From a plasmid, in sequence record NZ_CP120537.1: a stretch of 64,000 bases of DNA; one strand, given 5' to 3'. This document shows positions 5,211 to 39,839 of the stretch, piece by piece. The translations under genes and the position numbers were made by a program. A model generated the notes under the pieces. That model was not told the DNA's origin, did not search any database, and saw only the letters and a list, made by a program, of their open reading frames with translations. Within the stretch, counting starts at the first letter, position 1. Every line of letters begins with the position of its first letter.

Positions 5211-5212
5211 TC

Positions 5213-18871: not shown

Positions 18872-19066
18872 ATGGGTAAGGATATGAATGCAAACAAACA
18901 TAAAAAGATTAGTGTTGATATTAGTTTAGTAACAGAAGAATGGTTAGTTAAAGCAATTGAATTATCTGGAAGAACTAAAAAAGAAGAAATTAGGATACGT
19001 CTTGCTCATAGCTTAAAAAACATTGAAAAAATAGATGATAATTATTGGGAAATAATCTCAGCCTAA
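18872..19066 (+). CDS. traY: TraY-like ribbon-helix-helix protein, 64 aa (positional call).
   Basis: 'ISVDISLVTEEWLVKAIELSG' beta-strand-then-helix pattern; lies between traJ and traA. Confidence 0.45.
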   Translation: MGKDMNANKHKKISVDISLVTEEWLVKAIELSGRTKKEEIRIRLAHSLKNIEKIDDNYWEIISA

Positions 19067-19144
19067 TTTTTTTTGATTATATAAACTGTTAAATAAAAAG
19101 ACAGCGGGAAGACTTTGCCATTAAAAATGGATTTGTCGGGCTGG

Positions 19145-19156
19145 GGCGGTAGCGCA
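19145..19156 (+). promoter_or_regulatory. ops-like element GGCGGTAGCGCA, in the traY-traA intergenic region.
   Basis: The 8-nt core GGCGGTAG is exact; 10 of 12 positions match consensus GGCGGTAGCGTG; an RfaH paralog is encoded downstream in the same operon. Confidence 0.5.
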
Positions 19157-19298
19157 TTTAAATTAAATGAATTTTTATCTCGCTTTATTTCTTTGAGATT
19201 AACGAAGGAATAAAGCGAGCTAAAAGCTCAGAAGTTATTCGAAACTCTTTAGGAGTTTATTTTGAAAATACTGAAATATCTATTAACAAGGAAAACGT

Positions 19299-19667
19299 AT
19301 GAGTCAAATTGCTATTGAATCACCGGTAACAAAAAGAAAAGGTATTTTTGCACGAGCTTGGAATTCACTGAATTCTAAAGTCGCTAAATCGCTGTATAAA
19401 TATGTTGCTTCACCATTACTCTTATGGATGGCCGCACGTGGCTTCGCACAAGCCGCCGATTTAGCGGCCGCAGGGGCAGAGGATGCAGGCGATACCTTCG
19501 GTGAAGGGTCATCGGTGATGTACTACATCATGATCGGTGAAGCGGTGTTGGTATTCTTAGCCTTTATGCGAGCACAAAACCCCGCGTTACTCCTGCTCAT
19601 TCCTGTTTTCATTGTGGGAACTAAAATCGTCTTTGGTTTAATCGAAGCACCATCAACAGGCGGTTAA
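19299..19667 (+). CDS. traA: F-type propilin TraA.
   Basis: 122 aa; long leader then a hydrophobic C-terminal half; position is before traL. Confidence 0.75.
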   Translation: MSQIAIESPVTKRKGIFARAWNSLNSKVAKSLYKYVASPLLLWMAARGFAQAADLAAAGAEDAGDTFGEGSSVMYYIMIGEAVLVFLAFMRAQNPALLLLIPVFIVGTKIVFGLIEAPSTGG

Positions 19668-19682
19668 TGGATTAGGAGTTGG

Positions 19683-19991
19683 ATGATGGAAAACGAACGT
19701 GCCCAGCGATTCATTTTCCCTCAGACGTTAACCGAGCAAGGCGGTATTCTTCCATTACCCAATGATGAAACCGCCGTTCTACTAGGCCCCATGTTATGGG
19801 GCTTTTATGACGGACATTACATGACTGGCCTTGTGGTTGGTACGTTGCTCTGGTATGCCCTGAGGTACTTCAAAAAAGGGCGGGGAAGTCAGTGGTTACT
19901 CAATGCCTGTTATTGGTACTTACCCGCTTACTGCTTTAAAAGCATTTATAAATCTCTCCCTGACTCTGCGTTCAGACTTTATTTAAAATAG
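19683..19991 (+). CDS. traL: TraL.
   Basis: ~100-aa membrane protein in the F-order position. Confidence 0.65.
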   Translation: MMENERAQRFIFPQTLTEQGGILPLPNDETAVLLGPMLWGFYDGHYMTGLVVGTLLWYALRYFKKGRGSQWLLNACYWYLPAYCFKSIYKSLPDSAFRLYLK

Positions 19992-20004
19992 GAAGGAGGC
20001 TGCC

Positions 20005-20574
20005 ATGAAACTGAGCGCAGCTAAATCCGCCACGAAATACACCTCGTTATTGTTTATTACACTGACCTTTATGTTAGGCCTCAGTTTGACAGGTAATATT
20101 TTCGCGTGGCTGAGATTAGATGATTTACTCAATAGTCGACAAGAAACGTATATCCCGATGTTTTTTGATACCCCATTTACCTTAACGCGCTCGCATGCGG
20201 ATGCGAACTACCTTGAATCCGTCGCACAGTCGTTACTTTTTTTACGCTATAACGTCAGTCCGGAATCAGTGAAAGCAAACCATCAATCGTTATTACGGTA
20301 TGTAGCCAAAGAGGCGCGACCTGAAATGCAAGATGTGTTGGCGGTCGAAGCCAAAGAAATCATCAATAACAACGTCACCTCGGCATTTTACATGACCAAA
20401 ATGGAAGTCTATCCCGCTGACGGCATTATTGATATTCAAGGTGAGCTAAAAACGTGGATAGGTAAGCGCGAATCGTTACCTGAACATAAAAAATTACGGT
20501 TGCATATCAAGTATGTCAATGGAATTAGTGAAGTGATCAGCTTTGAGGACATTATTGATGAAGAAAAAAAGTAA
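20005..20574 (+). CDS. traE: TraE.
   Basis: 189 aa (F TraE is 188 aa); N-terminal transmembrane segment. Confidence 0.75.
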   Translation: MKLSAAKSATKYTSLLFITLTFMLGLSLTGNIFAWLRLDDLLNSRQETYIPMFFDTPFTLTRSHADANYLESVAQSLLFLRYNVSPESVKANHQSLLRYVAKEARPEMQDVLAVEAKEIINNNVTSAFYMTKMEVYPADGIIDIQGELKTWIGKRESLPEHKKLRLHIKYVNGISEVISFEDIIDEEKK

Positions 20575-21331
20575 TCCGATAAAGCTTCTCTGTTTAGCGT
20601 TAGCATTTTGTGGTTTTGTCTCGACAGTGCGTGCCGAACCAACAGCGCAGTTGCCAACCCAAATTCCGGTGTCTCCGGATTCACAAGTGAAGGTGGCTTT
20701 TAGCAACAGTGAACCGAATATGTTGGTTGTGCCAGGTGACAGAATTGTGGCCATCGACAGTGCTCAAGGCATGTTTATCAATGGCAATCAAAAAGGGGCA
20801 ACAGGTGTTGCGAATGGGGGCGTGGTATTAATGACCGCGCAAACTAAGCCCTTTACGTTTTACGTCAGAACGGCAGGGGGCTTAACGGTGTCGGTTGTGG
20901 CTGTTCCGCAAAAGCGTGATGGTCGCGTGTTGCAGTTTATCTCCAATCAACCGGCACAAAGTGCCGTCGCTAAACGTTGGGAGAGGGCTTTACCGTATCC
21001 ACGTGTCTTGGTTGAAATTCACAAAGCGTTACTGAACCAACAAACGCCGAATGGGTTTATTCCTGCGCCTGTGACGGCTTTACCGTCATTCGCATTACCG
21101 TCAGCCTATCGGGTGACAGCAAACAAAATGTGGAATGGGGGAGAGCTACGGGTATACCAACTGGATGTGATGAACACCAGCGCCGTCTCACAACCGCTAA
21201 GTGAGCGGTTGTTCAATCAGCACAATGTCCGCTCTGTGGTTATCTATCCCTATAGCGATACTGTGTTGGCGGGTGCCACAGCAACGGTCTGGTTAACCGT
21301 TAGTAATGAGGTTGAAAATGGCAAATATTAA
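20543..21331 (+). CDS. traK: TraK (secretin-like); probable start at ~20558.
   Basis: 'VVPGDRIVAIDS...KPFTFYVRT...LTVSVVAVPQ' parallels F TraK. Confidence 0.8.
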   Translation: MRTLLMKKKSNPIKLLCLALAFCGFVSTVRAEPTAQLPTQIPVSPDSQVKVAFSNSEPNMLVVPGDRIVAIDSAQGMFINGNQKGATGVANGGVVLMTAQTKPFTFYVRTAGGLTVSVVAVPQKRDGRVLQFISNQPAQSAVAKRWERALPYPRVLVEIHKALLNQQTPNGFIPAPVTALPSFALPSAYRVTANKMWNGGELRVYQLDVMNTSAVSQPLSERLFNQHNVRSVVIYPYSDTVLAGATATVWLTVSNEVENGKY

Positions 21332-22679
21332 TGTTCGTGCAAAGCGAAAACAAACGGCTCTGTTTGTGTTATTGGCCTTGGGATTAACGGGGATTGGTGG
21401 CGCAGCTTGGTACATGAGCTTACCTTCGAAGCCAAAAGCGGCCGCAAAACAATCGCGGCCTGCCCCCAATATGACAGGCGTCGTGACATCATCCTTTGAT
21501 AAGAATGTGGGAAAATCGGCGATGGCCGATTTGCAATCCACGGCCTCTCAAATGGATAAGCAAATGAAGCAAGTGAACGCCCGTATTGCGAAACTGGAAC
21601 AAGAAAACCGTGCGTATCGCGATAAAATTACTGAGCAGGATAAAGAATTAACTGCCTTAGGTGAAGAACTCACGAAAATGGGAAACGATTTCATACACGG
21701 TAATAGCAATAACGGTTTGCCACAACCGCAGCAACTGCCCGTAGGAACACTACCCACACCGAATGCACAAGCCAGTCAGCCAATCATTCCGCCGCCAACG
21801 GCATTTTATCAAGGGGGGCAATATCCAGTCGGGCAACCACAAATTAATGTGAATCCCGTACTAAAACAAGGTTTATCCTCGATGACGATTGAGTATGAGG
21901 ATGAGCAGGAAAACACCGATTTACCGGATTTGCCCTACATCCCATCAGGCAGTTTTGCCAAAGCGATGGTGATTGAAGGGGCTGATGCGAATGCGTCTGT
22001 GACGGGAAACAGTAATCCCTCTCCAATGCAATTTCGGTTAACGGGTAAACTGATTATGCCGAATAACGAAGAGTATGATTTAAGTGGTTGTGCCGTTACC
22101 GCTGGGGTGTATGGCGATATTTCCAGTGAACGCGGATTGGTGCGTACCGACCGACTGTCTTGCAAACTGTTTGGTCATACCATCGATATGCCCTTTAAAG
22201 GCCACGTCTCTTTTATGGGGAAAAATGGGATTAAAGGCGAGCCGGTCATCCGAAATGGTGAGTTAGTCGGCTACGCCTTTGGCGGTGGCTTTCTTGAAGC
22301 GGTCGGTTCCGGTTTTTCAAAAGTGGGTGATAAAACGGTGGGTATTGGTGCCAGTAGCACAACCACGATGGCCGATGTGGCACGCGGTGGTGTCGGTGGC
22401 GGTGTACAGCAATCCGGAAAAATGTTGTCGGAATATTTCATTAAACGTGCTGAGCAATACCATCCGGTTATTCCCATCGGGGCAGGCATTGAAATTACGG
22501 TGGTGTTCCAGGAAGGTTTTCAGTTGAAGTTTATTGAACAAATGAAGAAAGCCAAATCGCAAAAACAAGCGGGGAACTCGCTGGAAAACTCCATTAATCA
22601 AGGTATCACCGTTTCAAAACAAGCATTAGAGCGGATTTCTTTAGGGGATGCCGTCCCCGCTGAGACTATCCCACAGTAA
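21306..22679 (+). CDS. traB: TraB; probable start MANINV at ~21318.
   Basis: Collinear similarity to F TraB (ANINVRAKRKQ...; C-terminal '...YHPVIPIGAG.E.TVVFQ.GFQLK'). Confidence 0.9.
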   Translation: MRLKMANINVRAKRKQTALFVLLALGLTGIGGAAWYMSLPSKPKAAAKQSRPAPNMTGVVTSSFDKNVGKSAMADLQSTASQMDKQMKQVNARIAKLEQENRAYRDKITEQDKELTALGEELTKMGNDFIHGNSNNGLPQPQQLPVGTLPTPNAQASQPIIPPPTAFYQGGQYPVGQPQINVNPVLKQGLSSMTIEYEDEQENTDLPDLPYIPSGSFAKAMVIEGADANASVTGNSNPSPMQFRLTGKLIMPNNEEYDLSGCAVTAGVYGDISSERGLVRTDRLSCKLFGHTIDMPFKGHVSFMGKNGIKGEPVIRNGELVGYAFGGGFLEAVGSGFSKVGDKTVGIGASSTTTMADVARGGVGGGVQQSGKMLSEYFIKRAEQYHPVIPIGAGIEITVVFQEGFQLKFIEQMKKAKSQKQAGNSLENSINQGITVSKQALERISLGDAVPAETIPQ

Positions 22680-22713
22680 CCGAAGTCCTTTCAGTATTTA
22701 TTCTTAATTTTCA

Positions 22714-22932
22714 TTGTCATCATTCAGGTACAGCCCAATGCAAAACCGAATTCGTCAGCTAAAAAAGCGGATGCGTTTGAGTTCGTTACTTATGACGCTC
22801 ATTACGATTTCTCCGGCCGCGTTATTTGTTTCCCATCATGTGAGTTGGGACTCGGTCATCTTTTTAGCGATTTACAGCGGGTTAAGTGTTTGGGTTGTAC
22901 AAATCCTGAGTGCTGACCATCAACTAAAGTGA
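22714..22932 (+). CDS. Small membrane protein, 72 aa.
   Basis: Hydrophobic ORF between traB and the rfaH-like gene. Confidence 0.4.
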   Translation: MSSFRYSPMQNRIRQLKKRMRLSSLLMTLITISPAALFVSHHVSWDSVIFLAIYSGLSVWVVQILSADHQLK

Positions 22933-22938
22933 GTCATC

Positions 22939-23430
22939 ATGGAAAAGTGGTATTTATTATATTGTAAACGTGACCAGGTTTTACGCGCGATTGAGCACCT
23001 TGAGCGTCAAGGGGTGACTGTACATAACCCAACCTACAAAACTGAGAAAATGGTGAGGAATCGCCGTAAGAAAGTGATGGAGCCGTTATTTCCCAATTAT
23101 TTATTTGTGAAGTTTGATTATGAAGTCATTCACTTTTCGACGATTGGCTCGACACGTGGCGTGAACTACTTTGTCCGCTTTGGTCAGAACCCCGTGGTTG
23201 TACCTAATGAAGTGATTGCGACACTGGTTGTACCTGATTTCGTGAAAGAGATGAGTGATAACTTACCGCAAAAAGGGGATGAAGTCGTCATTACGGACGG
23301 TATTTTTGTGGGTATTCAAGCGATTTATAACGAACCCGATGGGGAAGCACGTTCGGTATTACTTCTTAAAATCCTCAACAAAGAAGTTCCCAAAGTCGTC
23401 GATAACCGCAGCTTTGAAACCATTAAATAA
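22939..23430 (+). CDS. rfaH: RfaH-family transcription antiterminator paralog (NusG-like NGN + KOW).
   Basis: 163 aa, collinear with E. coli RfaH ('WYLLYCKR...LERQ...EPLFPNYLFV.FD.EVIH...TRGV..FVRFG..P..VP..VI..L...GD.V.IT.G.F.G.QAI..EPDGEARS.LLL..LNKE'). Confidence 0.85.
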   Translation: MEKWYLLYCKRDQVLRAIEHLERQGVTVHNPTYKTEKMVRNRRKKVMEPLFPNYLFVKFDYEVIHFSTIGSTRGVNYFVRFGQNPVVVPNEVIATLVVPDFVKEMSDNLPQKGDEVVITDGIFVGIQAIYNEPDGEARSVLLLKILNKEVPKVVDNRSFETIK

Positions 23431-23452
23431 CAGGCTAAGGGGGCAGGTAGTA

Positions 23453-23569
23453 ATGGAATCAATGACTTTTCCGATACTTGTGATTGCCATTATATTCTTA
23501 GGGTTAGCACTAAATGGGGCTATCCGTGCAGGTGAAGCTAAATTTGGAATACCCCTAAAATCAGTGTAA
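23453..23569 (+). CDS. Possible 38-aa membrane peptide (MESMTFPILVIAIIFLGLALNG...).
   Basis: Strong RBS 'AAGGGGGCAGGTAGTA' before ATG; hydrophobic. Confidence 0.3.
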   Translation: MESMTFPILVIAIIFLGLALNGAIRAGEAKFGIPLKSV

Positions 23570-23649
23570 TACCCGAACAATGCGAAGAGAAGGATTAAAT
23601 TCATTTCAGCCATCGGGTTCGTTTTCTCAAATTATCAACAGGATTAATA

Positions 23650-23883
23650 ATGGATATACAGTTTAAAGATTTTACGATAGATGGGGTTATTATTTCTAAT
23701 TTAAAAAGTGTTAGGCGTGACCGACGGCTAATGAATGATGAAATGAACCAATGGCTAAATGAAAATAATATAACCGATATCATTAATATCGAATCCTTGG
23801 AATATGAGGTCCCTCCAACTATTGGAAGCCTTGGTGGTGTTAAATTTCACGGGTTTAGGCTTTGGTATAAAATCATCAAGTAA
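23650..23883 (+). CDS. Hypothetical protein, 77 aa.
   Basis: ORF only. Confidence 0.4.
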   Translation: MDIQFKDFTIDGVIISNLKSVRRDRRLMNDEMNQWLNENNITDIINIESLEYEVPPTIGSLGGVKFHGFRLWYKIIK

Positions 23884-24053
23884 CGTCTTTCGTTTAAATT
23901 CAAATTCCTAGAAACTCACTTGTCTCAAAAAGTACATGATTATCCGTTAATTAACCGTATTTAATTAAATGGTTATGAATAAAAATATTTTTATTCGTCA
24001 CTGAATAAGCGGCGACACAAATTCATCGTTATTTCTCCACAAAACACTTCTTT

Positions 24054-24644
24054 TTGTCATTCATTTATAAGGTTCATTTTATGAAAAAATTCCTAATTCT
24101 AGGCGCATTAACCTTGCTCGCCGGTTGTACAGCGGGCATGAAAGATTCCTTTGATTGTAATGCCACCGCGCAAGATAGCTGCATGACGATGGAAGAAGCC
24201 AATCAAAAGGCAGCACAGCAAAATTTCACGTGGAACCATCCTGCTAATGGGGAGGGCATATCCCAAAAGCGAGTCGAACTGCCGCGGTTAGCACCGTTGG
24301 CAACCCCGACTGTGCCAGTTGTGACAACCGCGTCTCCAGCTCAGTCTGTTCGTACTGTGGTGCAGGATAATCGCGCTTCTTCACAAAATGTGGGGGCATT
24401 AGGTGCATTCAAGCCTTCATCCGCATCCGTTAAAAAATCCGTGCCATCCAATACACTACCCCCCATTCAACACACGGCACAAGCCTGGGCGAGTTGGAGT
24501 GATATTGGTATGGCACCGCCTCAACGATTACCGACCACGACGGCTCGCTTATGGATAGCCCCGTGGATAGATGAACAAGATAACCTGTATCAGCCTGCGG
24601 TTGTCTCTTTTGTGGTGAAAGATGGTCAGTGGAGAGTCCAGTAA
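24054..24644 (+). CDS. traV: TraV lipoprotein; probable start MKKFLIL at ~24081.
   Basis: Lipobox 'LLAGCTAG'; 'FDCNATAQDSCMTMEEANQKA' matches the F TraV Cys-rich region. Confidence 0.8.
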   Translation: MSFIYKVHFMKKFLILGALTLLAGCTAGMKDSFDCNATAQDSCMTMEEANQKAAQQNFTWNHPANGEGISQKRVELPRLAPLATPTVPVVTTASPAQSVRTVVQDNRASSQNVGALGAFKPSSASVKKSVPSNTLPPIQHTAQAWASWSDIGMAPPQRLPTTTARLWIAPWIDEQDNLYQPAVVSFVVKDGQWRVQ

Positions 24645-27357
24645 CATGAATGAAAAACCGTCCTTAATCGATAAGCTGCTTGCCCCGTTTCTCCCCAAGT
24701 CAAAAGACATTGTGTTTGATGACGAGCCCGAACCGGTATCGTTGCAAGAAGCGTTATTCAAGAACTTATTTACCGCATGGCGAGAGCCGGATGGAAGCAA
24801 AGGGGCGTCTGAAGCCTTGGACAATATGGATTATCCTTCCTTTTGCAGCGTATTACCGTATCGAAATTATGATGCGAAATCTGGCCTGTTTATCAATAAA
24901 ACCACCATTGGCTTTTTATTAGAGTGTACGCCACTGGTGGGCGCGAATGAAAAAATTGTCGATGCGCTGGATTACTTTCTACGCAATAAGCTCCCGCGTA
25001 AAACGCCATTAACATTCATGTTATTGGGCAGTAAGTGCATCAGTGAACAGTTAGGCTATGGGCTAAAAGACTTTGGGTGGCAAGGGGAAGAAGCGGAGAA
25101 ATTCAACCATATCACGCGTGCCTTTTACGAGCGTGGTGCTTTGGAAGGGCTGAATAATAAGCTCAATCTGCCGTTATCGCTACGCAATTACCGTTTGTTT
25201 GTGTGTTATGCCGAAGAGCATAAAAAAGCCGATGCACTCACATTACAAAAAGTAAATCAAACCCTCAGTATTGTCATGGAGTCCTTGGCTGGCGCCTCCC
25301 TGCACTGTGAGCAAATGGATGACAAAGGATTACTGCAACTGGTACGTGAAATCACTAACTTTCGACACGATCAGATTGCGTTATCAAGCAGTGAAGTTGA
25401 CCCGTATGAGTCGCTCAATGACCAGTGCGCTGACCGTTCGATCAACGTTGAAATTCGGCCCGATGCTATTCATCAGTCGTTATCGATGGAAAAAGGCCAG
25501 AAAAGCAAAACGCGTATCATGAATTACATGCTGGAGAAAAACCCAACACAATTCGCTTTATGGCAAACGGGCGATAACTTGAGTAATTTGCTTGATCCTG
25601 CATCCAGTGTGTCTTGTCCGTTCGTCATAACCGTGTCCGTGTATGTTGAAGATTTGGTGAAAACCCAAAACGAGGCCAAGAAAAAGTTTATCACCAATAA
25701 TAGTCGGGCTAACTCTAAGTACATCAATTGGGTGCCTGGCGTAAAGCGTAAAGCTGAAGAGTGGGGCGCATTGCGTGAAGAGCTGGACGCCAATCAAACC
25801 GCTCTCGCGCGTTACAGTTACGGTATCTCCTTATTTTGTGAAGACGATGATGATAAAGCGTTAAAAGCGGAAATGGCATTGATGAATACCTACACCACTA
25901 ATCGCTTAAAGCTATGCCCAACAACGTTTATGCAATTACGTAACTATTTGGCGCTGTTTCCTTTTGTCATGCAAGAGGGGCTTTGGGGCGATATGGTGCG
26001 TTCAGGCGGCACACTTAGAGCGAAAGCCTTTAATGTTGCCAATTTATTGCCTGTGGTGGCCGATAATCGGATTTGTCAAAAAGGTTTACCTATCCCGTCG
26101 TATCGGCACCAACTCTCCTTTCTCGACATTTTTGAGCGGGGTTCAGGTCTCGGTAATGACAACTTTAATGCGGCGGTGTGTGGGACGTCAGGCAGTGGTA
26201 AATCATTCCTCATGCAAGCGCTGATCCGTCAAGTGCTCGATGCAGGCGGTTGGGCGTATGTGCTAGATATGGGGGATTCCTATAAAGAGCTGTGTCACAG
26301 TCTTGGGGGCGTCTATGTCGATGCTCGCGACCTTAAATTCAATCCGTTCGCGGGTGTCGTCGATATAAAAGAGGCCGCGGAAAGTATTCGTGACCTGCTC
26401 ATCGTATTGGCGAATCCTTCGGGCGATATGGATGATGTGTCTAAATCTATCCTACTCAATGCCGTTCAAGATGTGTGGGAAGGGAAAGCGCCAAGCAAGC
26501 GTAAAGGCAATCAAGTCCTGATTGATGATGTTCACGATTACCTTAAAGCCGAAGTTGATTTGGGCTACTTTGATCCCCAAAGTACGGTCCAAAATAAGAT
26601 GCAAGAAATCATTGTGGCATTGAAAAAATACACTACCAAAGGGTTATATGGGGCGTATTTTAATAGTGACAAGCCGGCACTGAATGAGCAGGTACGCTTT
26701 ACCGTACTGGAAATGGGCGGACTGCAAAACAAGCCTGACCTGTTAGCCGCCGTCATGTTCTCGATGATGATCTTCATTCAGCAACGAATGTACTTAACGG
26801 CGCGCAGTATCAAAAAACTCGCGGCCATTGATGAAGGTTGGAAGCTACTGGATAACAAGAGTAGCTTTGTCGCCGACTTTATTGAAAGCGGTTATCGAAC
26901 TGCCCGTAAATACGGTGGCTCTTACATTACCATCTCACAAGGGATCGACGATTTTGACGGCGATGGTGCCAGTACTGCCGCGAAAGCCGCGTGGAGTAAC
27001 TCCTCCTTCAAAATTATCTTGCGGCAAAACATGGAAGCGTTCCGTAAATACAATCAGAAGAATCCCGACCAGTTCAATCCTGTTGAACGCGCCATTATTG
27101 AAGGGTTCCCTGCCGCAGGGGATGCACACTTTAGTGCCTTTATGCTGCGAATTGCGGGGCGCTCCTCATTCCATCGGTTGGTAACCGATCCGATTAGCCG
27201 GGCATTGTACTCAACCGATGGGGATGACTTCCAATTTCGTGAAAACCGCATGGCGGAAGGACTGTCACAACAAGCGGCGTTATTGGCACTGGCTAAGCGC
27301 AAATTCCCACAAGAAATGGAGACCTTATCCCAATGGCAGAGTCAAACACGACATTAG
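24622..27357 (+). CDS. traC: TraC (VirB4-family ATPase).
   Basis: Collinear with F TraC; Walker A 'GTSGSGKS'. Confidence 0.95.
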   Translation: MVSGESSNMNEKPSLIDKLLAPFLPKSKDIVFDDEPEPVSLQEALFKNLFTAWREPDGSKGASEALDNMDYPSFCSVLPYRNYDAKSGLFINKTTIGFLLECTPLVGANEKIVDALDYFLRNKLPRKTPLTFMLLGSKCISEQLGYGLKDFGWQGEEAEKFNHITRAFYERGALEGLNNKLNLPLSLRNYRLFVCYAEEHKKADALTLQKVNQTLSIVMESLAGASLHCEQMDDKGLLQLVREITNFRHDQIALSSSEVDPYESLNDQCADRSINVEIRPDAIHQSLSMEKGQKSKTRIMNYMLEKNPTQFALWQTGDNLSNLLDPASSVSCPFVITVSVYVEDLVKTQNEAKKKFITNNSRANSKYINWVPGVKRKAEEWGALREELDANQTALARYSYGISLFCEDDDDKALKAEMALMNTYTTNRLKLCPTTFMQLRNYLALFPFVMQEGLWGDMVRSGGTLRAKAFNVANLLPVVADNRICQKGLPIPSYRHQLSFLDIFERGSGLGNDNFNAAVCGTSGSGKSFLMQALIRQVLDAGGWAYVLDMGDSYKELCHSLGGVYVDARDLKFNPFAGVVDIKEAAESIRDLLIVLANPSGDMDDVSKSILLNAVQDVWEGKAPSKRKGNQVLIDDVHDYLKAEVDLGYFDPQSTVQNKMQEIIVALKKYTTKGLYGAYFNSDKPALNEQVRFTVLEMGGLQNKPDLLAAVMFSMMIFIQQRMYLTARSIKKLAAIDEGWKLLDNKSSFVADFIESGYRTARKYGGSYITISQGIDDFDGDGASTAAKAAWSNSSFKIILRQNMEAFRKYNQKNPDQFNPVERAIIEGFPAAGDAHFSAFMLRIAGRSSFHRLVTDPISRALYSTDGDDFQFRENRMAEGLSQQAALLALAKRKFPQEMETLSQWQSQTRH

Positions 27358-27758
27358 TCGATAAGGCAGTCAAAACGCCTGCACGAGGCATGAGCCGTCG
27401 TCGCAAAGAGTGCTTAAAAGCCATGAGCTTTTTTATGGTCATTGCCGTGGTGCTGAGTTTCAGTATTTCGGTATTTGTGGTGCGTTGGCTTGCCCCCGTT
27501 ACCGTCACTTTCGACATGACAGGCACAGTCAACCAGTATCAGCAGCAAATGGCCATGCAGTTTAACAGCGAAAACCCATTGAGCGAACAGCAAATTGCAG
27601 ATGCCACTCACCGTTTTCAAATGGCGCTCAGTGACAGTTTATCCGAGTACCAACAGTCACATCAGGCCCTGATTTTAGTCACGCCTGCGGTGGTGATGGG
27701 CGCGGAAGATATCACGGTCGATATTCAAGCCGCGATTGCAGACAAAATGGCGCAATAA
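27333..27758 (+). CDS. trbI: TrbI.
   Basis: '...LAPVTVTFDMTGTVNQ...ILVTPAVVMGAEDIT..IQ' parallels F TrbI; lies between traC and traW. Confidence 0.7.
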   Translation: MAESNTTLVDKAVKTPARGMSRRRKECLKAMSFFMVIAVVLSFSISVFVVRWLAPVTVTFDMTGTVNQYQQQMAMQFNSENPLSEQQIADATHRFQMALSDSLSEYQQSHQALILVTPAVVMGAEDITVDIQAAIADKMAQ

Positions 27759-27767
27759 GGAGGGAAA

Positions 27768-28400
27768 ATGAAGCGAATACGGCAGTCTACACTGGCAGTC
27801 TTGTTTTGTTTACCTTGTCTTGTTACCGCCAAAGATCTCGGTGTCTGGGGGGATGTGTACCCCGTTCAAGAGCAAAGTATGTTGGACTTTATCCAGGGGC
27901 GGTTAAAGCAGATGGAGGGCACGGGGGAAATCGCGCAGATGCAGCAGGATTTTAAAGATCGCGTGATTGAAAATACCCTGCGTCCACCGCCTGTGGATTG
28001 GCTCAGTACGGATACTGAAGCACACACACTGTGGTACGACCCGACGTTTACGGTTCAAGGGGATTATGCCGATCACAATGGCGTGGTGTTTGCCCGCCAA
28101 GGCGACAAAATAAACCCACTCAGTCACGTGGCACTCGGGCAAACCCTGTACTTTTTAGATGCGGATGATCCGCGCCAAATCGCGTGGATGAATGCACAGC
28201 AGCCCGCGACCTTGCGTTATAAAGTCATTTTAACTAACGGCAATATCAAGGAGGCCACACAGGCGCTGAATACGCGTGTGTTCTTTGACCAAGGGGGCAG
28301 TTTAAGTCATCAGCTCGGGCTTCAGTATATTCCCGCAGTCGTCACACAAGAGGGCGACAAGCTCAAAATCGTCTCGGTGGCGATGCAGGAGGTGCGATGA
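27768..28400 (+). CDS. traW: TraW.
   Basis: 210 aa (F TraW is 210 aa); signal peptide; F-order position. Confidence 0.7.
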   Translation: MKRIRQSTLAVLFCLPCLVTAKDLGVWGDVYPVQEQSMLDFIQGRLKQMEGTGEIAQMQQDFKDRVIENTLRPPPVDWLSTDTEAHTLWYDPTFTVQGDYADHNGVVFARQGDKINPLSHVALGQTLYFLDADDPRQIAWMNAQQPATLRYKVILTNGNIKEATQALNTRVFFDQGGSLSHQLGLQYIPAVVTQEGDKLKIVSVAMQEVR

Positions 28401-29392
28401 ATAAATTTACCCGTTGGCTATTGAGTGTGTGTGTCCTTGGCTGTGTGAGCGTGACAATGCCAGCGAAAGCCGATGTGATGTGTGAAGGGAATTTTGTTAA
28501 TCCGATCACCGATATTTGTTGGGATTGCCTGTTTCCGATGACCATTGGTAATGTCCCCGTTTTCCCTGGCGTGGCACCGGATACAGAAAACCCTTCGATG
28601 CCGATACAGATTTGCCCGATGGGAATTTTATACCGCATTGGTCTTGCCATTGGCTATTGGGAGCCCTTTGCCCTAACGGATGTGACGCGTTCACCGTATT
28701 GCATGGTGAATTTAGGCGGCTTTAACATCAATGTCGGTAAAATGGGCGGGGGCAAAGGTACGCAAAATGACCCTGCCACTCAAGGGGCGTTCTACCATGT
28801 GCATTGGTACAAATACCCGCTGACCTATTGGCTCAATATCATTACCTCGGCAGGCTGTTTAGAGCGCGGGGATATGGATATCGCCTATTTGTCGGAGTTA
28901 GATCCCTTGTGGAATGACAGTTCGTTGTCGTCGATTATTGCCCCTGAAGCGTTTGTGTTTGCCAATCCTATCGCGCAAGGGGCGTGTGCTGCGGATGCGA
29001 TTGCCAGTATTGGCAGCAAGCCCTTAAATGCGCTCTTTTGGTGTGCGGGTTCTCAAGGCAGTATGTATCCGTTTACGGGGTATACGGGGAATGAATTTAG
29101 CCCACAGGCTTCCTCGGTTCTGCTGTCTGAGCGCATGGCGTTTAAATTACATCGGCAAGGGTTGGTGATGAACAGCGTTGGGAAAAATCAGGAGGTGTGC
29201 TACACCTATCCGTCCCCGATTATCCCGAAAGACCGTTATCGCTATCAAATGGTGAATATGTACCCGGATACCGCGCAATGTCATCCTTTTGGTCGGTCCG
29301 TGATGCGCTGGCAAACGGGGCATGCCTCACCCAACAGTCGTAAAAACTTCGGTTATCTCATCTGGCGTAAACGTAACTGCGTTTTCCTCTAA
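28397..29392 (+). CDS. traU: TraU.
   Basis: 331 aa (F TraU is 330 aa); signal peptide; Cys-rich. Confidence 0.75.
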   Translation: MNKFTRWLLSVCVLGCVSVTMPAKADVMCEGNFVNPITDICWDCLFPMTIGNVPVFPGVAPDTENPSMPIQICPMGILYRIGLAIGYWEPFALTDVTRSPYCMVNLGGFNINVGKMGGGKGTQNDPATQGAFYHVHWYKYPLTYWLNIITSAGCLERGDMDIAYLSELDPLWNDSSLSSIIAPEAFVFANPIAQGACAADAIASIGSKPLNALFWCAGSQGSMYPFTGYTGNEFSPQASSVLLSERMAFKLHRQGLVMNSVGKNQEVCYTYPSPIIPKDRYRYQMVNMYPDTAQCHPFGRSVMRWQTGHASPNSRKNFGYLIWRKRNCVFL

Positions 29393-29407
29393 CACGAGGT
29401 CCTTTTC

Positions 29408-30028
29408 ATGAAATCCGTTTTCTTTTTATTCGCAAGCGTACTGCTTGCGTCGACGAGTCATGCCTTAACGGATGACCAACAGTTTTTAGAACAGCTGCGC
29501 GACCAAAGCGCGACCTTGCGGGAACACTCCTTGCCGCCGGATGGCTTTAAGCCACCGGAAATCTCGGCCAAGGATAAAGCCTGGATTGATAGCTTATTAG
29601 CCAAGCAGCAGCATGCGCAGCAACAAGTTGCCGATGCGGCTAAAGCGCAAACAGCTCGGGAAACTCCGTTTATCTATTTTGTGTCGTTTTCTATTCCCGA
29701 AGCGGGACTCAAACAGATGGTGCCAGAGGCCACGCAGCTTGGTATCCCCACGTTGATTAATGGGCTGATTGACAATGACTTTCGTAAAACGGCCAGTGCC
29801 GTGTTTGAACTGACCAAAGACAGTGGTGAAGGGGGCGTACAAATCGACCCGAAAACCTTTGCACAATACGGCATTACGCAAGTTCCTGCACTGGTAGTGC
29901 GCTGTGAGCAAGGCTTTGATGTGATATACGGCAATATTCGTTTGATATCCGCCATTGAACGGATTGCCAGCAGTGGCGATTGCCATCAGGTTGCTCAAGA
30001 TTGGTTGGTATCGAGGACGCGGCAATGA
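29408..30028 (+). CDS. trbC: TrbC.
   Basis: 206 aa periplasmic protein in the F trbC position. Confidence 0.65.
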   Translation: MKSVFFLFASVLLASTSHALTDDQQFLEQLRDQSATLREHSLPPDGFKPPEISAKDKAWIDSLLAKQQHAQQQVADAAKAQTARETPFIYFVSFSIPEAGLKQMVPEATQLGIPTLINGLIDNDFRKTASAVFELTKDSGEGGVQIDPKTFAQYGITQVPALVVRCEQGFDVIYGNIRLISAIERIASSGDCHQVAQDWLVSRTRQ

Positions 30029-31917
30029 AACGGTTATTGATTGCATTATGTGGTGTGGGGGCTCTGTCACTGGGGTTTGCGGCCAATGATTATAAAGCAG
30101 GCTCAGAATTTGCGAATAGCCTGAAAAATAAAGGGACAGACACGATAAAAAACACCAATCCCGCCGACATTATTCCGAACTATACCGCCAATCCGTCAGA
30201 AAGTGGCTATTACGGTGGGGTGACGTCAGGCGCAGCTTCGGGGCTGGAAAATGCCGGTATGAAAGCGATGAATGACACCGATGCGGGACAAACCACGATG
30301 GAGGTCATGAAAAACCGACCACCGGATAAGTTAGATTTGGACGCCCCGTTCTTAAAAGCCGGCATTGATATGCGGGAAAAGGCGGAGTCAGAAAGCGGGC
30401 AAATTACGGTGCCGTGTCAGGATGTGACGCTGGATAAAACCGAAATCACGTCACACCAATGTGAGCGAACCCCAGCGGCCAGTTTAGCCTGTACTCGCAC
30501 AGCCAAAATTACGTGGGAAGAGGATACACAATCGGTTTTGAAAGAAATTTATATCCCCAATGAACAAATCAAATATCACAATGTGGGCAGAAAACCGATT
30601 GTTGGGACATTTAATCTTGATCAAGATGGGCGAATTGAAGCCTTTACGATGTATGCATGGGCAAGAAAATGCGCCCCCTACAATGAGCCATTGTTTCCGT
30701 GGCATACAGATCAGGTTATCAGTTTATGGGGATTAACACTGACGGATTTAAAACCGCAACGCACCTGTAATTGGAATGATATGGGAAATGCAAAAACGGT
30801 TGTTGCTACTAAGGCCGTTAATGTTAAAGAGGGAAAGCATCAGTTTACGATTTCATTAACGGGGCTTTGGCAATACGGCAATATTACGGAAGGTAGCGTT
30901 GATTTATTGAATAAAAATCAATTAAGAATCAATTTGAAAATTAAGATGTGGGTACTCGAAAAAACGGTTAAACCCAAAATTGAATGGGTTGAACATTGTC
31001 CGTTTGATAAATCTGAAGAAGTGAAAGTTGAAACCCAATGTACTGAAAAAGGGGGCACGAAAACCGTCACGGTGGGCGGTAAAAAATACGATGTTTACAG
31101 TGAATGTTGGCAGTACACCGATTATTACGCCAAGCAGTCGGCAGACAATGGCAGCTGCGGTGACTACATGAAAAATCCCGCTTGCACCATTGTCAAAACC
31201 ACCTGTATTGAATCCGTTGGCAGTACGTGTTTGCGGGAGCAAGCGGTGTTTTCCTGTGAAAAAGGGCTGACCGGAGGCGGGAAAATGTGCGGCGTTGAGC
31301 TGATTTGTGCCAGCGGCGAGTGTGACCAAATCAAAAATGATAAAGCCAACAGCTTCCAAAAAGCGGTATCGGCGTTAGCAGCGGTGGCGGCGGCAGGCGA
31401 AGATGTGGCAGAGCTCAATGACGTGAATGTCAGGGCTTTTACAGGTCAGCGTTATACCTGTCGTAAAGCGGCTGCGGGGTTTAATAACTGCTGCAAAAGT
31501 GGTGGTTGGGGAAGTGATGTGGGGCTGGCGCACTGTGACAGTGAAGAAAAAGCGCTGGGTAAAGCCAAAAGTCGCAATCTGACCATTTATGTCGGTTCCT
31601 ATTGCTCGAATAAAGTCCTCGGGGTGTGTCTTCAGAAGAAAGAAGCCTACTGCGTGTTTGACAGTAAGCTTGCCAAAATCGTGCAAGAGCAAGGACGTGG
31701 CGGGCAGTTACGCATTGGTTTTGGTAGCGCCAAAAACAGTGACTGTCGCGGTATCACCGTCGATGAATTGCAGGCCATTAACTTTGACCGACTGAATTTT
31801 GCGGATTTCTATTCCGATTTGGAATCGGGCACCGATATTCCGGCTGACCAAGAACTGATTGACCGCGTAAAAAATCAAATCGCCAATGGCCTGCAAGGGC
31901 AAGGGGGACAAGGATGA
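29980..31917 (+). CDS. traN: TraN (outer-membrane mating-pair stabilisation protein); probable start at ~30025.
   Basis: 645 aa; signal peptide; C-terminal half very Cys-rich. Confidence 0.75.
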   Translation: MPSGCSRLVGIEDAAMKRLLIALCGVGALSLGFAANDYKAGSEFANSLKNKGTDTIKNTNPADIIPNYTANPSESGYYGGVTSGAASGLENAGMKAMNDTDAGQTTMEVMKNRPPDKLDLDAPFLKAGIDMREKAESESGQITVPCQDVTLDKTEITSHQCERTPAASLACTRTAKITWEEDTQSVLKEIYIPNEQIKYHNVGRKPIVGTFNLDQDGRIEAFTMYAWARKCAPYNEPLFPWHTDQVISLWGLTLTDLKPQRTCNWNDMGNAKTVVATKAVNVKEGKHQFTISLTGLWQYGNITEGSVDLLNKNQLRINLKIKMWVLEKTVKPKIEWVEHCPFDKSEEVKVETQCTEKGGTKTVTVGGKKYDVYSECWQYTDYYAKQSADNGSCGDYMKNPACTIVKTTCIESVGSTCLREQAVFSCEKGLTGGGKMCGVELICASGECDQIKNDKANSFQKAVSALAAVAAAGEDVAELNDVNVRAFTGQRYTCRKAAAGFNNCCKSGGWGSDVGLAHCDSEEKALGKAKSRNLTIYVGSYCSNKVLGVCLQKKEAYCVFDSKLAKIVQEQGRGGQLRIGFGSAKNSDCRGITVDELQAINFDRLNFADFYSDLESGTDIPADQELIDRVKNQIANGLQGQGGQG

Positions 31918-32702
31918 CAAGACGGATTTTAATATTGCTCATCAGTCTGGTGATACCCGGAGCGGGATTGGCCAACAATGAGGAAAGGGTTGAAACGCGA
32001 ACGTATGTGGATGAGCCCATCGTCGGTTGGCACTGGTACAACGAGCCTCAACCGGAAGACGAGGAAGAGCCGCCAGAGCCAGAGCAAATCCCACTTTCGA
32101 CGTTATCACCGACGCTGCAAAAAAAGGTCATGCAAAAGTTGACAGAAGAAGCCTTAGACACCGCGATTATGCAACCCTCGCCACAAAATGCCCTGCGATA
32201 CATGGCGTATCAGCGCTTTTGGTTGGAGCAGTCCGGTAAGTTTGAGCGGTCAGTAAAAAAAGGGTTATTGCTTGACCCTACCCTTGATTACAACTTGGAG
32301 CACAGTCACTACAACAGTACGGTGCCATTGCAACTATCCCAACTGCAAGGCAAGGAAAAAGCGGCTATTCAATCGTTATCGTCACAATACGGTGTGTTTT
32401 TCTTTTATCGCGGACAAGACCCACTGGATAACCAGTTAGCTACCGTGGTTCGGGAATTTGCACAGTCACACAGTATTGCTCTGATTCCCGTATCCGTTGA
32501 TGGCGTTCGCAGTGAAGCACTGCCTGAGACTCGACCTGATACGGGGCAAGTCGCCAAAATGGGTATCACCCATTTTCCGGCCTTGTTCTTAGTTGACCCG
32601 AAAAGTGAACATTACCAACCGCTTGCGTATGGGTTTATGACGCAAGATGCGTTAGCCCGCCGCTTTTTAGATGTCGCCACAGATTTTAAGCCTAATTATT
32701 AA
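31914..32702 (+). CDS. traF: TraF (thioredoxin-fold pilus assembly protein).
   Basis: '...DYNLEHSHYN.TV...FFFYRGQDPLD.QLA.V...IPVSVDGV....LP..R.D.GQ...G...FPA..LVDPK......L.YGF..QD.LA..FL.V..DFKPN' parallels F TraF. Confidence 0.85.
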   Translation: MTRRILILLISLVIPGAGLANNEERVETRTYVDEPIVGWHWYNEPQPEDEEEPPEPEQIPLSTLSPTLQKKVMQKLTEEALDTAIMQPSPQNALRYMAYQRFWLEQSGKFERSVKKGLLLDPTLDYNLEHSHYNSTVPLQLSQLQGKEKAAIQSLSSQYGVFFFYRGQDPLDNQLATVVREFAQSHSIALIPVSVDGVRSEALPETRPDTGQVAKMGITHFPALFLVDPKSEHYQPLAYGFMTQDALARRFLDVATDFKPNY

Positions 32703-33015
32703 GGATAAAGACATGACAAAACCCACGATAAAAGAACGATTAATTGAAAATACTTTGATTTACCTTGGCATGACGTTGATTTTTGCCTCACTGATTTTTT
32801 ATGGACTGATCCATTACTTAATCGATATTCGCCACGGCGTTTTAAGTGAGTCTACAAAGCAAACCCTTCAAATGATACAAGAAACCGGCATGGTATTTAT
32901 TTTCGCATTAGGGGCTGCGACGTGTTTGGCAGGGATGTTCTATGCCGTCATTAAAGCTTGGCAGCGCATTAAAGCCCCGACCGTTTTTCCGGAGGATGAG
33001 GAGAAAACATCGTGA
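32671..33015 (+). CDS. Small membrane protein (TraQ/TrbA position); probable start at ~32713.
   Basis: Two transmembrane segments; positional call only. Confidence 0.4.
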   Translation: MSPQILSLIIKDKDMTKPTIKERLIENTLIYLGMTLIFASLIFYGLIHYLIDIRHGVLSESTKQTLQMIQETGMVFIFALGAATCLAGMFYAVIKAWQRIKAPTVFPEDEEKTS

Positions 33016-33545
33016 GAATAATGATGTTAGCGATAATGTTGTTCTTCAGCGGTCTAGTTCAAGCGAGTGTGATGGATGATATTGCGGAGCTTGAAGCGCA
33101 TAAAACCGCCCCAACCGAGCGAGAAACCGTCATTGAAGAAGAAACACCGCCATCAAAAATCAATACCGTTGTAGTTAAACCGTACCGATTACCCAACGGA
33201 AAGGTCGTCAATTTAAATGATTATACCTTGGTGTTGTTTATGCAAGCTAAGTGCCCGTATTGCCAGCAGTTTGACCCGCAATTAGCCTTACTGTCAGCGC
33301 AAACGGGATTTAAGGTTTTTGCGTACACGCTCGATGGTCAAGGCGATATGGCGTTTCCCAATGCGATACCCGCGCCCGCTGAAGTGGTGCAAACTTTTTT
33401 TGGGGCAGGGATGCAAGTTGTGACGCCTTCCGTGTTTTTGGTGGAGGTCAATACCTTACGAACATACCCACTGCTACAAGGGCTGACGGATATGCAGGAT
33501 GTGATGAACCGAATCAACAGTAACTTAATGTTGGCGACACAATAA
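33012..33545 (+). CDS. trbB: TrbB (periplasmic thioredoxin/DsbC-like).
   Basis: CxxC motif 'CPYC'; signal peptide; 177 aa. Confidence 0.7.
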   Translation: MRIMMLAIMLFFSGLVQASVMDDIAELEAHKTAPTERETVIEEETPPSKINTVVVKPYRLPNGKVVNLNDYTLVLFMQAKCPYCQQFDPQLALLSAQTGFKVFAYTLDGQGDMAFPNAIPAPAEVVQTFFGAGMQVVTPSVFLVEVNTLRTYPLLQGLTDMQDVMNRINSNLMLATQ

Positions 33546-33672
33546 AGGAGATTTGGTGACTGAAAATGCGTAAAGCGCAAAAAGATGTGTAAGAAGTACT
33601 TTTTTTAGTGCTAAGTCTGTGGGGATATTTTACTGCTGACCTATTTTATCATTTGAAAATAGAGAACGTATT

Positions 33673-34074
33673 ATGCCAAATAATCAGGTGGATACTGCAA
33701 TCCAAGATGAGATAAATCGTGATAAAAATGCAAAACTCCAAAAAAGAATTCGTGAATTAAGAAAATACCAATCCTGTGAAGCGAAACGCCAAGACCAGAG
33801 CGCTTCTGAGTTTATTGGTTATGCTATCGCAGGTTTGGTTCTTTGGTTTGTGATGCATAAGGCGTTTGAGATGGCATGCTGGCCTGATAGTGAACTCGAT
33901 GCTGACCCTAACTACTTAGGAACAAAAGGACTGTGGAATGTGGTGATGTATGTTGTGCCCTTTTGTTTTTGGGGTATTGCGATAAAACACCTTGTGATAG
34001 GGGTATTTTCTTGGATCGAATATTACTTTGCACAGTTTAAAATCACTCGGTTGAAAAAGAAGTTAGCCAAATGA
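33673..34074 (+). CDS. Membrane protein (TrbF-like position).
   Basis: Hydrophobic ORF before traH. Confidence 0.4.
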   Translation: MPNNQVDTAIQDEINRDKNAKLQKRIRELRKYQSCEAKRQDQSASEFIGYAIAGLVLWFVMHKAFEMACWPDSELDADPNYLGTKGLWNVVMYVVPFCFWGIAIKHLVIGVFSWIEYYFAQFKITRLKKKLAK

Positions 34075-34466
34075 AAAAGCGAGATTATCACATTATCGAC
34101 CCACTGATTGAACCACTGGTGAAAACCTTCAATCAATGCGGTTTTAGCACTTATGCTTCCTGCCAAGGGCATGGTTGGCCTGTTGACTATCGGAAGCCCT
34201 ATATCGCGTTTATATCGACAACTGAACATGCAGGGCGGCTTGAACAGCGCTTGCGGGAGGATATGGAATCCCCATTACCCAAGCTTAACTGGGGATGGAT
34301 GATTGGCTGCGGGTTTAATGACGCTTATCAATTGTGTTTTTCACTGCGGCTTTGTGGCCATCGCCGAGGGTATTATCGCTACTGGCGGCCGTCAATCATC
34401 CATGATTTTGCGGTTATCGAGAAGATGCTCCTCACCGAGTTTGGTTCTCATTCTTCAATGGAATAA
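34071..34466 (+). CDS. Hypothetical protein, 131 aa.
   Basis: ORF only. Confidence 0.4.
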   Translation: MKKRDYHIIDPLIEPLVKTFNQCGFSTYASCQGHGWPVDYRKPYIAFISTTEHAGRLEQRLREDMESPLPKLNWGWMIGCGFNDAYQLCFSLRLCGHRRGYYRYWRPSIIHDFAVIEKMLLTEFGSHSSME

Positions 34467-34661
34467 CGCTATTTCGCTCGTTATCTCCCTTTAATCTCAC
34501 TTTACTCTTTAATGCCGACACGCAATAGCTTGCGGATGATGGCACTCAATAAGGTTTACCCACAATGAATGATTTAATCAACCCTATTCCTTGCCGGAAT
34601 AAGGCGATAAACCCTGCCTTATTCTCGTGTTGGCCTATTTATCTTCAATCCGGAGGCCCTA

Positions 34662-36038: not shown

Positions 36039-36050
36039 AGGAGCCGCAAT

Positions 36051-38942: not shown

Positions 38943-38993
38943 GTCTGCATTTTAGGTTAAATAGTAGTTATTAGATTAAATTAAGGAATTAAA

Positions 38994-39491: not shown

Positions 39492-39579
39492 TCCTAACGC
39501 ACTTCGTTTGTTAACAGTCTATTCCCCTTAATAATAAATTTTTCAGGGGAATAGACTGTCTCGTCTCAAGAGGTTTCCA

Positions 39580-39786
39580 ATGGCTGATGAAATTGATGTC
39601 TCTCAAGCTGAGAGCGATTTTTTGCTGTCTCTAAGATTGAGTCAACGTGCTCAATATCAGGGGCAGAGTGCAAAAGTTTGCGTCGAGTGCGGTGATAATA
39701 TCCCGCTGGCTCGTCGAATCGCCTTACCTGGTGTTCAGCACTGCGTGGGTTGTGTCGAGCGCCAAGAGTTGTTCCGTTCCAGATAA
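39580..39786 (+). CDS. traR: TraR (DksA/TraR C4 zinc-finger protein).
   Basis: 'CVECGDNIPLARRIALPGVQHCVGC' C4 finger parallels F TraR; relocated relative to F (there it lies between traV and traC). Confidence 0.75.
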   Translation: MADEIDVSQAESDFLLSLRLSQRAQYQGQSAKVCVECGDNIPLARRIALPGVQHCVGCVERQELFRSR

Positions 39787-39839
39787 TGATTTTTCACATT
39801 CATACCCCGAATTTTTCCAAATATCTATTGAGGTTACAA

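Follow-up and report, generated by a model that had tools for sequence, protein, structure and literature searches.

Resistance spreads in large part on F-type plasmids, whose tra operons of about 30 kb are classic clients of RfaH. Here, we describe an rfaH gene that lies within such an operon, at positions 22939-23430 (+) of a 64,000-nucleotide stretch of plasmid DNA (sequence record NZ_CP120537.1; hereafter the window). Its product is a genuine RfaH-family protein, and we consider it probable that this is a functional RfaH-type transformer protein serving the plasmid's own tra operon. Support comes from family membership, the retention of functional residues, purifying selection, the core and the position of an ops-like site upstream, synteny, and a predicted autoinhibited fold. 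Antitermination of the tra operon appears to be the most plausible role of the protein, and this assignment is backed by the conservation of the ops-like site among related plasmids.

An RfaH-family protein encoded between traB and traV

22939..23430 (+): rfaH paralog, 163 amino acids (aa); identified by its open reading frame (ORF), the NCBIfam RfaH equivalog models, the Pfam NGN domain and a match to 2OUG. Domains of the product: NGN at about residues 1-100, a linker, and an RfaH-type C-terminal (KOW) domain at about residues 110-160.
18884..47640 (+): F-type tra operon, traY-A-L-E-K-B-orf-rfaH-...-V-C-trbI-W-U-trbC-N-F-trbB-H-G-...-D-I, from the annotation of NZ_CP120543.1 and the ORFs of the window; presumed target of the plasmid RfaH.

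The gene is an exact ATG-to-stop ORF of 163 codons for amino acids. Its product passes both RfaH equivalog models of NCBIfam (NF006534, 227.6 bits against a cut-off of 124; TIGR01955, 175.4 bits against 144.5, with residues 1-161 covered) and stays under every cut-off of the NusG, UpxY and LoaP models (UpxY, 64.6 versus 100 bits; LoaP, 33 versus 125). It aligns with E. coli RfaH (2OUG) from residues 1-160 to residues 1-160 with zero gaps (E 6e-53, about 55% identity), which bears out the collinearity proposed in an earlier note on this DNA that was made from the sequence alone. Because the alignment is gapless, residue numbering is the same as in E. coli RfaH and is used as such below. The earlier note had also assigned an NGN and a KOW domain. 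Pfam places the NusG NGN domain at residues 3-95 (E 1.6e-19); the Pfam KOW model has no match in the plasmid RfaH, and the second assignment stands instead on homology, since PDB entry 2LCL, the isolated RfaH C-terminal domain, matches residues 108-160 (E 5e-14). The C-terminal half is thus homologous to the RfaH C-terminal (KOW) domain. The identity of the gene as rfaH is already known: RefSeq/PGAP has given it this name in dozens of records.

Six Providencia sp. plasmids match region 22000-24700 of the window at 99.8% identity. One of them, NZ_CP120543.1 (pPROV046-NR1), has the gene order traM, a regulator ORF, traY, traA, traL, traE, traK, traB, a 65-aa ORF, rfaH, a 77-aa ORF, traV, traC ... 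traD, traI. TraB (21306-22679) scores 501 bits with NF010289, 3 bits short of the 504-bit equivalog cut-off, and exceeds the cut-off of Pfam TrbI; RefSeq names this ORF a TrbI/VirB10 family protein. TraV (24054/24081-24644) is above the cut-off of TIGR02747. With these flanking genes identified, the placement of rfaH between traB and traV inside an F-type tra operon, as first suggested from the sequence, is confirmed, the gene not immediately adjoining either of them.

A conserved ops-like site in the traY-traA leader

19102..19143 (+): predicted RNA stem-loop (minimum-free-energy fold), ending 2 nt before ops position 1 and 12 nt before position 11.
19145..19156 (+): ops-like element GGCGGTAGCGCA in the traY-traA leader, non-template (sense) strand.
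19168..19230 (+): long RNA hairpin just 3' of the ops-like site, from the leader fold and its conservation.

The cognate ops element is GGCGGTAGnnTG, and a scan of the window with GGCGGTAGNNT returned one site of interest. It lies in the 232-nt intergenic leader between traY and traA, 3.8 kb upstream of rfaH and in the same orientation. Positions 1-10 of GGCGGTAGCGCA are those of the ops elements of E. coli rfaQ and F tra, and positions 11-12 are CA, not TG. The core GGCGGTAGC occurs once in the 64-kb window with both strands counted, where 0.12 occurrences per strand and 0.0004 in the leader would be expected, and the sole CGGTAG on the sense strand of the tra operon is the one within the ops-like site. 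An isolated GGCGGTAG 8-mer inside umuC at 6537 (+) is probably a chance occurrence.

The same site recurs in related plasmids. Eleven of 12 related loci (RfaH identity 73-98%) contain exactly one GGCGGTAG in about 14 kb, always at the leader position and on the sense strand, and the twelfth reads AGCGGTAGC at the ops-like site. In an alignment of the 12 diverged leaders, whose mean column identity is 60%, GCGGTAGC forms a block that is invariant in all of them. A locus from a metagenome assembly with the same synteny and an RfaH of 66% identity (L065) carries the exact canonical GGCGGTAGCGTG between traY and traA. Variation within the clade falls on ops positions 10-12 (GCA, TTT or TAC), while the recruitment core, positions 1-9, is present, unique in the window and invariant across relatives, with CA here in the place of T11-G12. 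This division can be read against the mutagenesis of the E. coli element, in which G4, G5, A7 and G8 are essential to the recruitment of RfaH and C3 and T6 are also important for it, whereas T11 and G12 drive the pause: G12C loses the pause and keeps recruitment, T11G is strongly defective in vivo, and TG occupies positions 11-12 in all validated E. coli targets (PMC5995543). Single-mismatch versions of the ops site elsewhere in tra (19740, 22281 and 34827) were rejected as loading sites, since each is altered at A7 or G8, without which recruitment fails.

Predicted folding of the leader RNA is strong (z = -3.26). In the stem-loop upstream of the ops-like site, covariation is partial: pair 71/96 of the leader alignment (A1) alternates between AU and GC in 5 sequences, and pair 70/97 alternates between GC and UA in 3 and is broken in 4. 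The stem of the downstream hairpin is kept in 12 of 12 leaders, with two compensatory changes and a loop that ranges from about 15 to about 60 nt. Neither hairpin is followed by a U-tract and neither is terminator-like. Speculatively, the upstream hairpin could stabilise the pause in place of TG. Across the entire window no Rfam family scored at or above its gathering threshold. Four weaker matches (E<=1) fall in 16500-25000; none is to JUMPstart, and none overlaps the ops-like site.

Functional residues, selection and predicted fold

The window protein and nine other plasmid-locus copies all retain the residues that contact ops DNA in E. coli RfaH, namely K10, H20, R23, Q24 and R73 (Zuber et al. 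2018, PMC5995543); among six further, metagenome-derived members of the clade, one (P0018) has N20/V73. Also kept in the window protein and the nine plasmid loci are the hydrophobic patch that meets the beta' clamp helices (F51, P52, Y54 and F56), W4 and Y8, the interdomain pair E48-R138, and the LLL segment of the C-terminal domain, residues whose roles have been described (PMC5995543; PMC2871177).

The anti-pausing module departs from this pattern of conservation. Residues 65-68, the HTT(T) motif, read HFST in the window protein and in most plasmid copies (T66F/T67S) and HTST in a few metagenome-derived members of the plasmid clade; HTTT is invariant in every chromosomal RfaH sampled. In E. 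coli RfaH, H65A, T66A and T67A abolish anti-pausing and leave binding to the elongation complex intact (Belogurov et al. 2010, PMC2871177). The HTT module is a functional motif and is not among the criteria of the curated RfaH family models, and we treat HFS at this position as a variant feature of an RfaH family member, not as a ground for exclusion.

Pairwise ratios of nonsynonymous to synonymous substitution (dN/dS) among the plasmid rfaH copies are 0.03-0.11, at dS values from 0.25 to about 2. Values this low at such divergence indicate long-standing purifying selection on the plasmid gene, and they led us to reject the view of the window rfaH as a pseudogene or remnant.

An AlphaFold2 model of the plasmid RfaH has a mean pLDDT of 77.9, in which the NGN domain is confident and the C-terminal domain is drawn as an alpha-hairpin (helices 122-131 and 135-147, pLDDT 74-85). 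The closest structures are autoinhibited RfaH (5OND, 2OUG) and the encounter complex 8PIB, over about 149 columns at a root-mean-square deviation (RMSD) of 1.7-3.1 A; the fully recruited, beta-barrel forms of RfaH match over the NGN domain alone or at an RMSD above 9 A. The protein is therefore predicted to adopt the autoinhibited state, with its alpha-helical C-terminal hairpin packed on the NGN domain, a prediction in which AlphaFold2 may be biased by the known structure of RfaH.

Distribution and origin

Copies of rfaH at least 73% identical to that of the window were found in 46 records of the plasmid collection, all from Providencia, and the next best matches are chromosomal RfaHs (Proteus, 62%; E. 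coli, 55%). The TraB type of this operon likewise occurs in 46 Providencia plasmid records, and the matching counts make rfaH look as if it belongs to the core of this tra backbone. The order traB, 65-aa ORF, rfaH, ... traV is invariant in all relatives.

Among representative genomes, the chromosomal RfaHs of Providencia, Xenorhabdus, Photorhabdus and Moellerella are 56-64% identical to the plasmid protein. All of the Providencia chromosomes sampled encode an RfaH, 56-60% identical and with the same residues for ops contact and RNA polymerase binding; in Providencia sp. Me31A, a chromosomal copy (58%, L035) occurs alongside one of the plasmid type (98%, L003). In a neighbour-joining tree, which has no bootstrap support and an arbitrary rooting, the plasmid copies form one clade outside all chromosomal RfaHs of the Enterobacterales. 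This topology indicates that the plasmid RfaH is an old paralog; a recent capture of the host rfaH was rejected, the plasmid clade being monophyletic and just 56-60% identical to Providencia chromosomal RfaH.

These results bear on the rationale that the earlier note had offered for a plasmid-borne copy. Its suggestion of a broad-host-range adaptation that frees tra expression from the host finds no support in a distribution confined to 46 Providencia records, with an RfaH bearing the same contact residues on every chromosome sampled. Nor does the proposed insulation from host RfaH find support: because the DNA-contact residues and the ops core are both canonical, cross-talk with the host factor would be expected, not orthogonality.

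In each of three plasmid lineages of P. alcalifaciens, rfaH is interrupted by a single frameshift (L060, 7001-7476; L061, 7001-7476; L063, 7001-7488). In L060 and L063, traK/traB are also fragmented, and in L061 the tra genes are otherwise intact-looking. These frameshifts could be genuine decay or else errors of (homopolymer) sequencing.

A second F-type plasmid family with rfaH after traB

IncFII/MOBF/MPF_F plasmids of Pectobacteriaceae, Erwinia, Pantoea, Phytobacter, Ewingella and Cedecea encode an rfaH whose product is about 39% identical to the window protein. The layout is the same: traA-L-E-K-B are followed by rfaH, then by variable ORFs and then by traV-traC, and a GCGG(T/A)AGC element is found where the traA region starts. 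However, the 65-aa ORF is missing before rfaH, traY is absent upstream, an Arc-like regulator is encoded on the opposite strand, the ops-like element falls inside the annotated traA reading frame (about 42 nt in), and the contact residues of RfaH have diverged (K10Q, R23N, or H20Q/T68A).

The element near the traA start is GCGGTAGCTTTGCC in L064 (position 5523) and L068 (position 3012), identical over 14 nt to some Providencia leaders, and GCGGAAGCC at the equivalent positions of L066, L067 and L069; the proteins are encoded at 9001-9540 of L064 and at 6501 to about 7030 of L066-L069. Elements of the GCGGTAGC type go with RfaHs that have H20/T68, and elements of the GCGGAAGC type, in which T6 is changed to A, go with RfaHs that have Q20/A68 and an altered R23. 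In the E. coli complex, H20 and R23 are part of the T6 pocket and T68 is an ops-contacting residue (PMC5995543). The pairing is suggestive of protein-DNA co-evolution at the T6 pocket, as seen in two lineages and with the element inside an annotated reading frame.

Proposed mechanism and alternative explanations

We propose that RNA polymerase starts upstream of traY and transcribes the 232-nt leader, whose non-template strand would expose GGCGGTAGC, able to form a small ops DNA hairpin. The autoinhibited plasmid RfaH, and probably the host RfaH too, would bind this element via K10/H20/R23/Q24/R73, upon which the alpha-helical C-terminal domain would be released and the NGN domain would lock onto the beta' clamp helices. 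The polymerase modified in this way, resistant to Rho and to pausing, would exclude NusG and Rho and read about 28.5 kb on to traI, and the refolded KOW domain may couple ribosomes. Since rfaH lies on the same transcript, downstream of the loading site, read-through would make more RfaH, a positive feedback in which the supply of the factor scales with tra transcription. We propose recruitment, antitermination and feedback by analogy with E. coli RfaH on F and with PrfaH of IncX3, and a part for host RfaH from the logic of the sequences.

A scan for a sigma-70 promoter serving rfaH alone gave promoter-like matches at chance level (23 versus 23.5 expected). A separate promoter was set aside on this lack of evidence for independent transcription, although the scan cannot exclude one; rfaH starts 6 nt after the preceding ORF. 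Terminator-like sites number 12 in 16.8-25 kb, mostly on the antisense strand (7.0 +/- 2.8 expected), and 17 in 25-45 kb (21.2 +/- 5.9 expected). Intrinsic terminators within tra were rejected as the obstacle to be overcome, the sense strand showing no enrichment, and any termination that is overcome would therefore be mostly Rho-dependent.

Several observations weigh against the proposal that the plasmid RfaH serves its own tra operon. The ops-like site of the window is without the T11-G12 pause dinucleotide common to validated E. coli targets, no Rfam JUMPstart match surrounds it, and sense-strand intrinsic terminator-like sites are not enriched in the operon. The anti-pausing motif HTT reads HFS in most of the plasmid clade, rfaH is frameshifted in three P. 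alcalifaciens plasmid lineages, and the plasmid protein may be redundant, the host RfaH having the same DNA-contact residues.

This last point leads to the alternative in which the chromosomal RfaH of the host loads at the plasmid ops, as it does for F, and the plasmid copy adds little and is dispensable for transfer. The RfaHs of the Providencia hosts share the residues for ops contact and RNA polymerase binding, every host sampled has one, the ops core on the plasmid is canonical, and rfaH is frameshifted in L060, L061 and L063, with the rest of tra looking intact in L061. However, a redundant passenger sits poorly with purifying selection that is strong and spans a deep divergence (dN/dS 0.03-0.11 at dS up to about 2), with a position that is invariant in relatives, with the 1:1 co-occurrence of rfaH and this TraB type in Providencia, and with the independent maintenance of the same layout in a second plasmid family; the frameshifts, for their part, may be sequencing errors or a sign of general tra decay, as the fragmented traK/traB of L060 and L063 would suggest. 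We regard redundancy as unlikely. A role exercised chiefly in trans seems very unlikely to us: the protein would act on chromosomal operons with ops sites (lipopolysaccharide core, O-antigen, capsule, haemolysin-type), and the cell surface and virulence would be remodelled when tra is on. Its DNA-contact residues are the same as those of chromosomal RfaH, from which recruitment to host ops sites would be expected, and E. coli RfaH does act in trans on unlinked operons (PMC7593976). Nevertheless, the conserved ops core in the leader of its own operon and the invariant placement inside tra point to a role on the operon in cis.

The altered anti-pausing module raises the further prospect of a modified or braking factor, in which the HFS protein loads at ops and excludes NusG and Rho with no suppression of pausing, or competes with host RfaH and so limits tra. 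The T66F/T67S change is specific to the plasmid clade at a motif that is invariant, as HTTT, in the chromosomal RfaHs sampled, and alanine substitutions of H65, T66 and T67 uncouple anti-pausing from elongation-complex binding (PMC2871177). But H65 and T68 are retained and serine is a conservative replacement for threonine, a pure inhibitor would have no obvious need for the full conserved apparatus of autoinhibition and KOW domain, and the IncX precedent is an activator; we hold a braking role to be highly improbable. Returning to a factor that serves its own tra operon, one elaboration combines the plasmid RfaH, the ops without T11G12, the two RNA hairpins and the altered HTT motif into a distinct self-amplifying, potentially bistable conjugation switch. 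The upstream hairpin, formed in the nascent RNA and ending 12 nt before ops position 11, would take the place of the consensus TG pause and hold RNA polymerase for loading, HFS would tune anti-pausing, and a possible spill-over to host ops operons would couple cell-surface synthesis to mating. We offer this elaboration tentatively and consider it rather doubtful.

Neighbouring features

22738..22932 (+): hydrophobic ORF of 65 aa, stopping 6 nt before rfaH; most relatives have an ORF annotated at this position.
23431..24080 (+): rfaH-traV interval, variable in content, with small ORFs and an AT-rich gap in the window.

The 65-aa ORF appears to be a conserved partner of rfaH in the Providencia clade, judging by its recurrence there. 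It has no Pfam or NCBIfam match, and a relationship to TrbD was rejected, BLASTP showing no similarity to TrbD of F. In the window, the interval between rfaH and traV contains one annotated ORF of 77 aa (23650-23883) along with unannotated short ORFs and the AT-rich gap; in relatives, it holds from 0 to about 13 unrelated ORFs. It has the look of a cargo hotspot inside the tra operon (window 23431-24080; L053 7493-13872; L065 5464-13441), with a cargo that includes GNAT acetyltransferases and, in the second plasmid family, also a DNA adenine methylase.

About 55 nt upstream of traY, at 18811-18828 (+), lies a perfect 18-bp palindrome, TTGGGACAG joined to CTGTCCCAA, a likely operator for the regulator ORF upstream (17960-18712, no Pfam match). 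It is confined to one sub-clade; other sub-clades have a CCCGAGTCGGG repeat and a LuxR/GerE-type regulator, and on this evidence the regulator/operator modules are mosaic. From about 33500-34660 onward, coordinates in the window run about 671 bp ahead of those in NZ_CP120543.1 (traH start, 34662 versus 33991; traI end, 47640 versus 46969), and the window may carry an insertion relative to that plasmid or else derive from another of the plasmids at 99.8% identity. MOB-suite/PLSDB type these Providencia plasmids as 'non-mobilizable' despite a complete MPF_F set, TraD and a TraI relaxase/helicase of 1710 aa, which is probably a false negative for a divergent relaxase. Outside the operon, at about 3058-7554 (+), umuD and umuC are about 2.9 kb apart, and part of the space between them is an insertion of two genes, one for a DGQHR-domain protein and one for a hypothetical protein.

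Implications and comparison with known systems

The idea of a tra-resident antiterminator is not new, having been both proposed and annotated. Wang et al. (2020) noted that the tra operons of plasmids contain resident NusG paralogs, which are probably tra antiterminators and would benefit plasmids that move between species (PMC7593976). A 2021 review likewise remarked that the RfaH homologs of clinical resistance plasmids may have a part in transfer (PMC7819879). Our search of the full-text literature found no paper detailing or testing this F-type rfaH arrangement. Our additions are the site at which the factor probably loads, the autoregulatory geometry, two features that depart from the E. 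coli paradigm (the missing TG pause and the HFS motif), a host range that is restricted, and another plasmid family of the same design. Current understanding is not overturned; a published hypothesis is extended with specific and testable cis and trans elements.

If the proposal is true, entire F-type plasmid families, one in Providencia and a separate one in Pantoea, Erwinia, Phytobacter and Pectobacteriaceae, bring their own RfaH together with a matching loading site, and the control of conjugation at the level of elongation would often be plasmid-autonomous and probably autoregulated. The RfaH inhibitors proposed as anti-virulence or anti-conjugation agents would then also have to hit the plasmid paralogs. 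In addition, the natural ops variants without TG and the HFS motif provide test cases for separating recruitment, pausing and anti-pausing.

The closest paradigm is E. coli RfaH (SfrB; 2OUG, 5OND) on F tra. The dependence of F tra on chromosomal RfaH, on which the earlier note had drawn, is established (PMC7593976; PMC7819879). The residues for ops contact, beta' clamp-helix binding and interdomain contact are the same in the plasmid protein, as are the predicted alpha-hairpin of the C-terminal domain, the type of target (an F-type tra operon) and the ops core GGCGGTAGC. In contrast, the plasmid rfaH lies inside its target operon whereas the E. coli gene stands alone on the chromosome, the plasmid RfaHs form a clade apart from all chromosomal RfaHs, those of their hosts included, and the window departs from the paradigm in being without T11-G12 and in reading HFS for HTT. 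The loading site differs as well. In the F tra region the sole GGCGGTAG is the canonical GGCGGTAGCGTG between traV and traR, about 5.5 kb into the operon, whereas the window has it in the traY-traA leader, at the beginning of the operon.

The other close parallel is PrfaH/ActX of IncX plasmids (R6K; IncX3 pHNYX644; PDB 9IK0), a plasmid NusG/RfaH-like factor co-transcribed with the type IV secretion system genes that it activates. PrfaH of IncX3 is an operon-encoded antiterminator of demonstrated activity with an ops-like site upstream of its own gene (PMC11880322), and the rfaH of the window, as in the IncX type, is within and co-oriented with a conjugation operon and has its recruitment site upstream. 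However, PrfaH is encoded by the first gene of a P-type virB operon, whereas the window rfaH is mid-operon in an F-type tra region, and the two proteins share 24% identity in a structural alignment with 9IK0, with a sequence match limited to the NGN domain (E 1.9e-11). The DNA-contact residues and the target of PrfaH differ from those of RfaH, and chromosomal RfaH cannot substitute for it (PMC11880322), whereas the residues and the core in the window are canonical. The low identity, the NGN-only match and the RfaH-type contact residues place the window protein outside the ActX/PrfaH subfamily. More broadly, UpxY of Bacteroides capsule loci and LoaP of Bacillus polyketide clusters are likewise specialised NusG paralogs encoded with the long operon that they make processive (PMC7819879; PMC11685472), although they belong to other subfamilies and use other recruitment signals.

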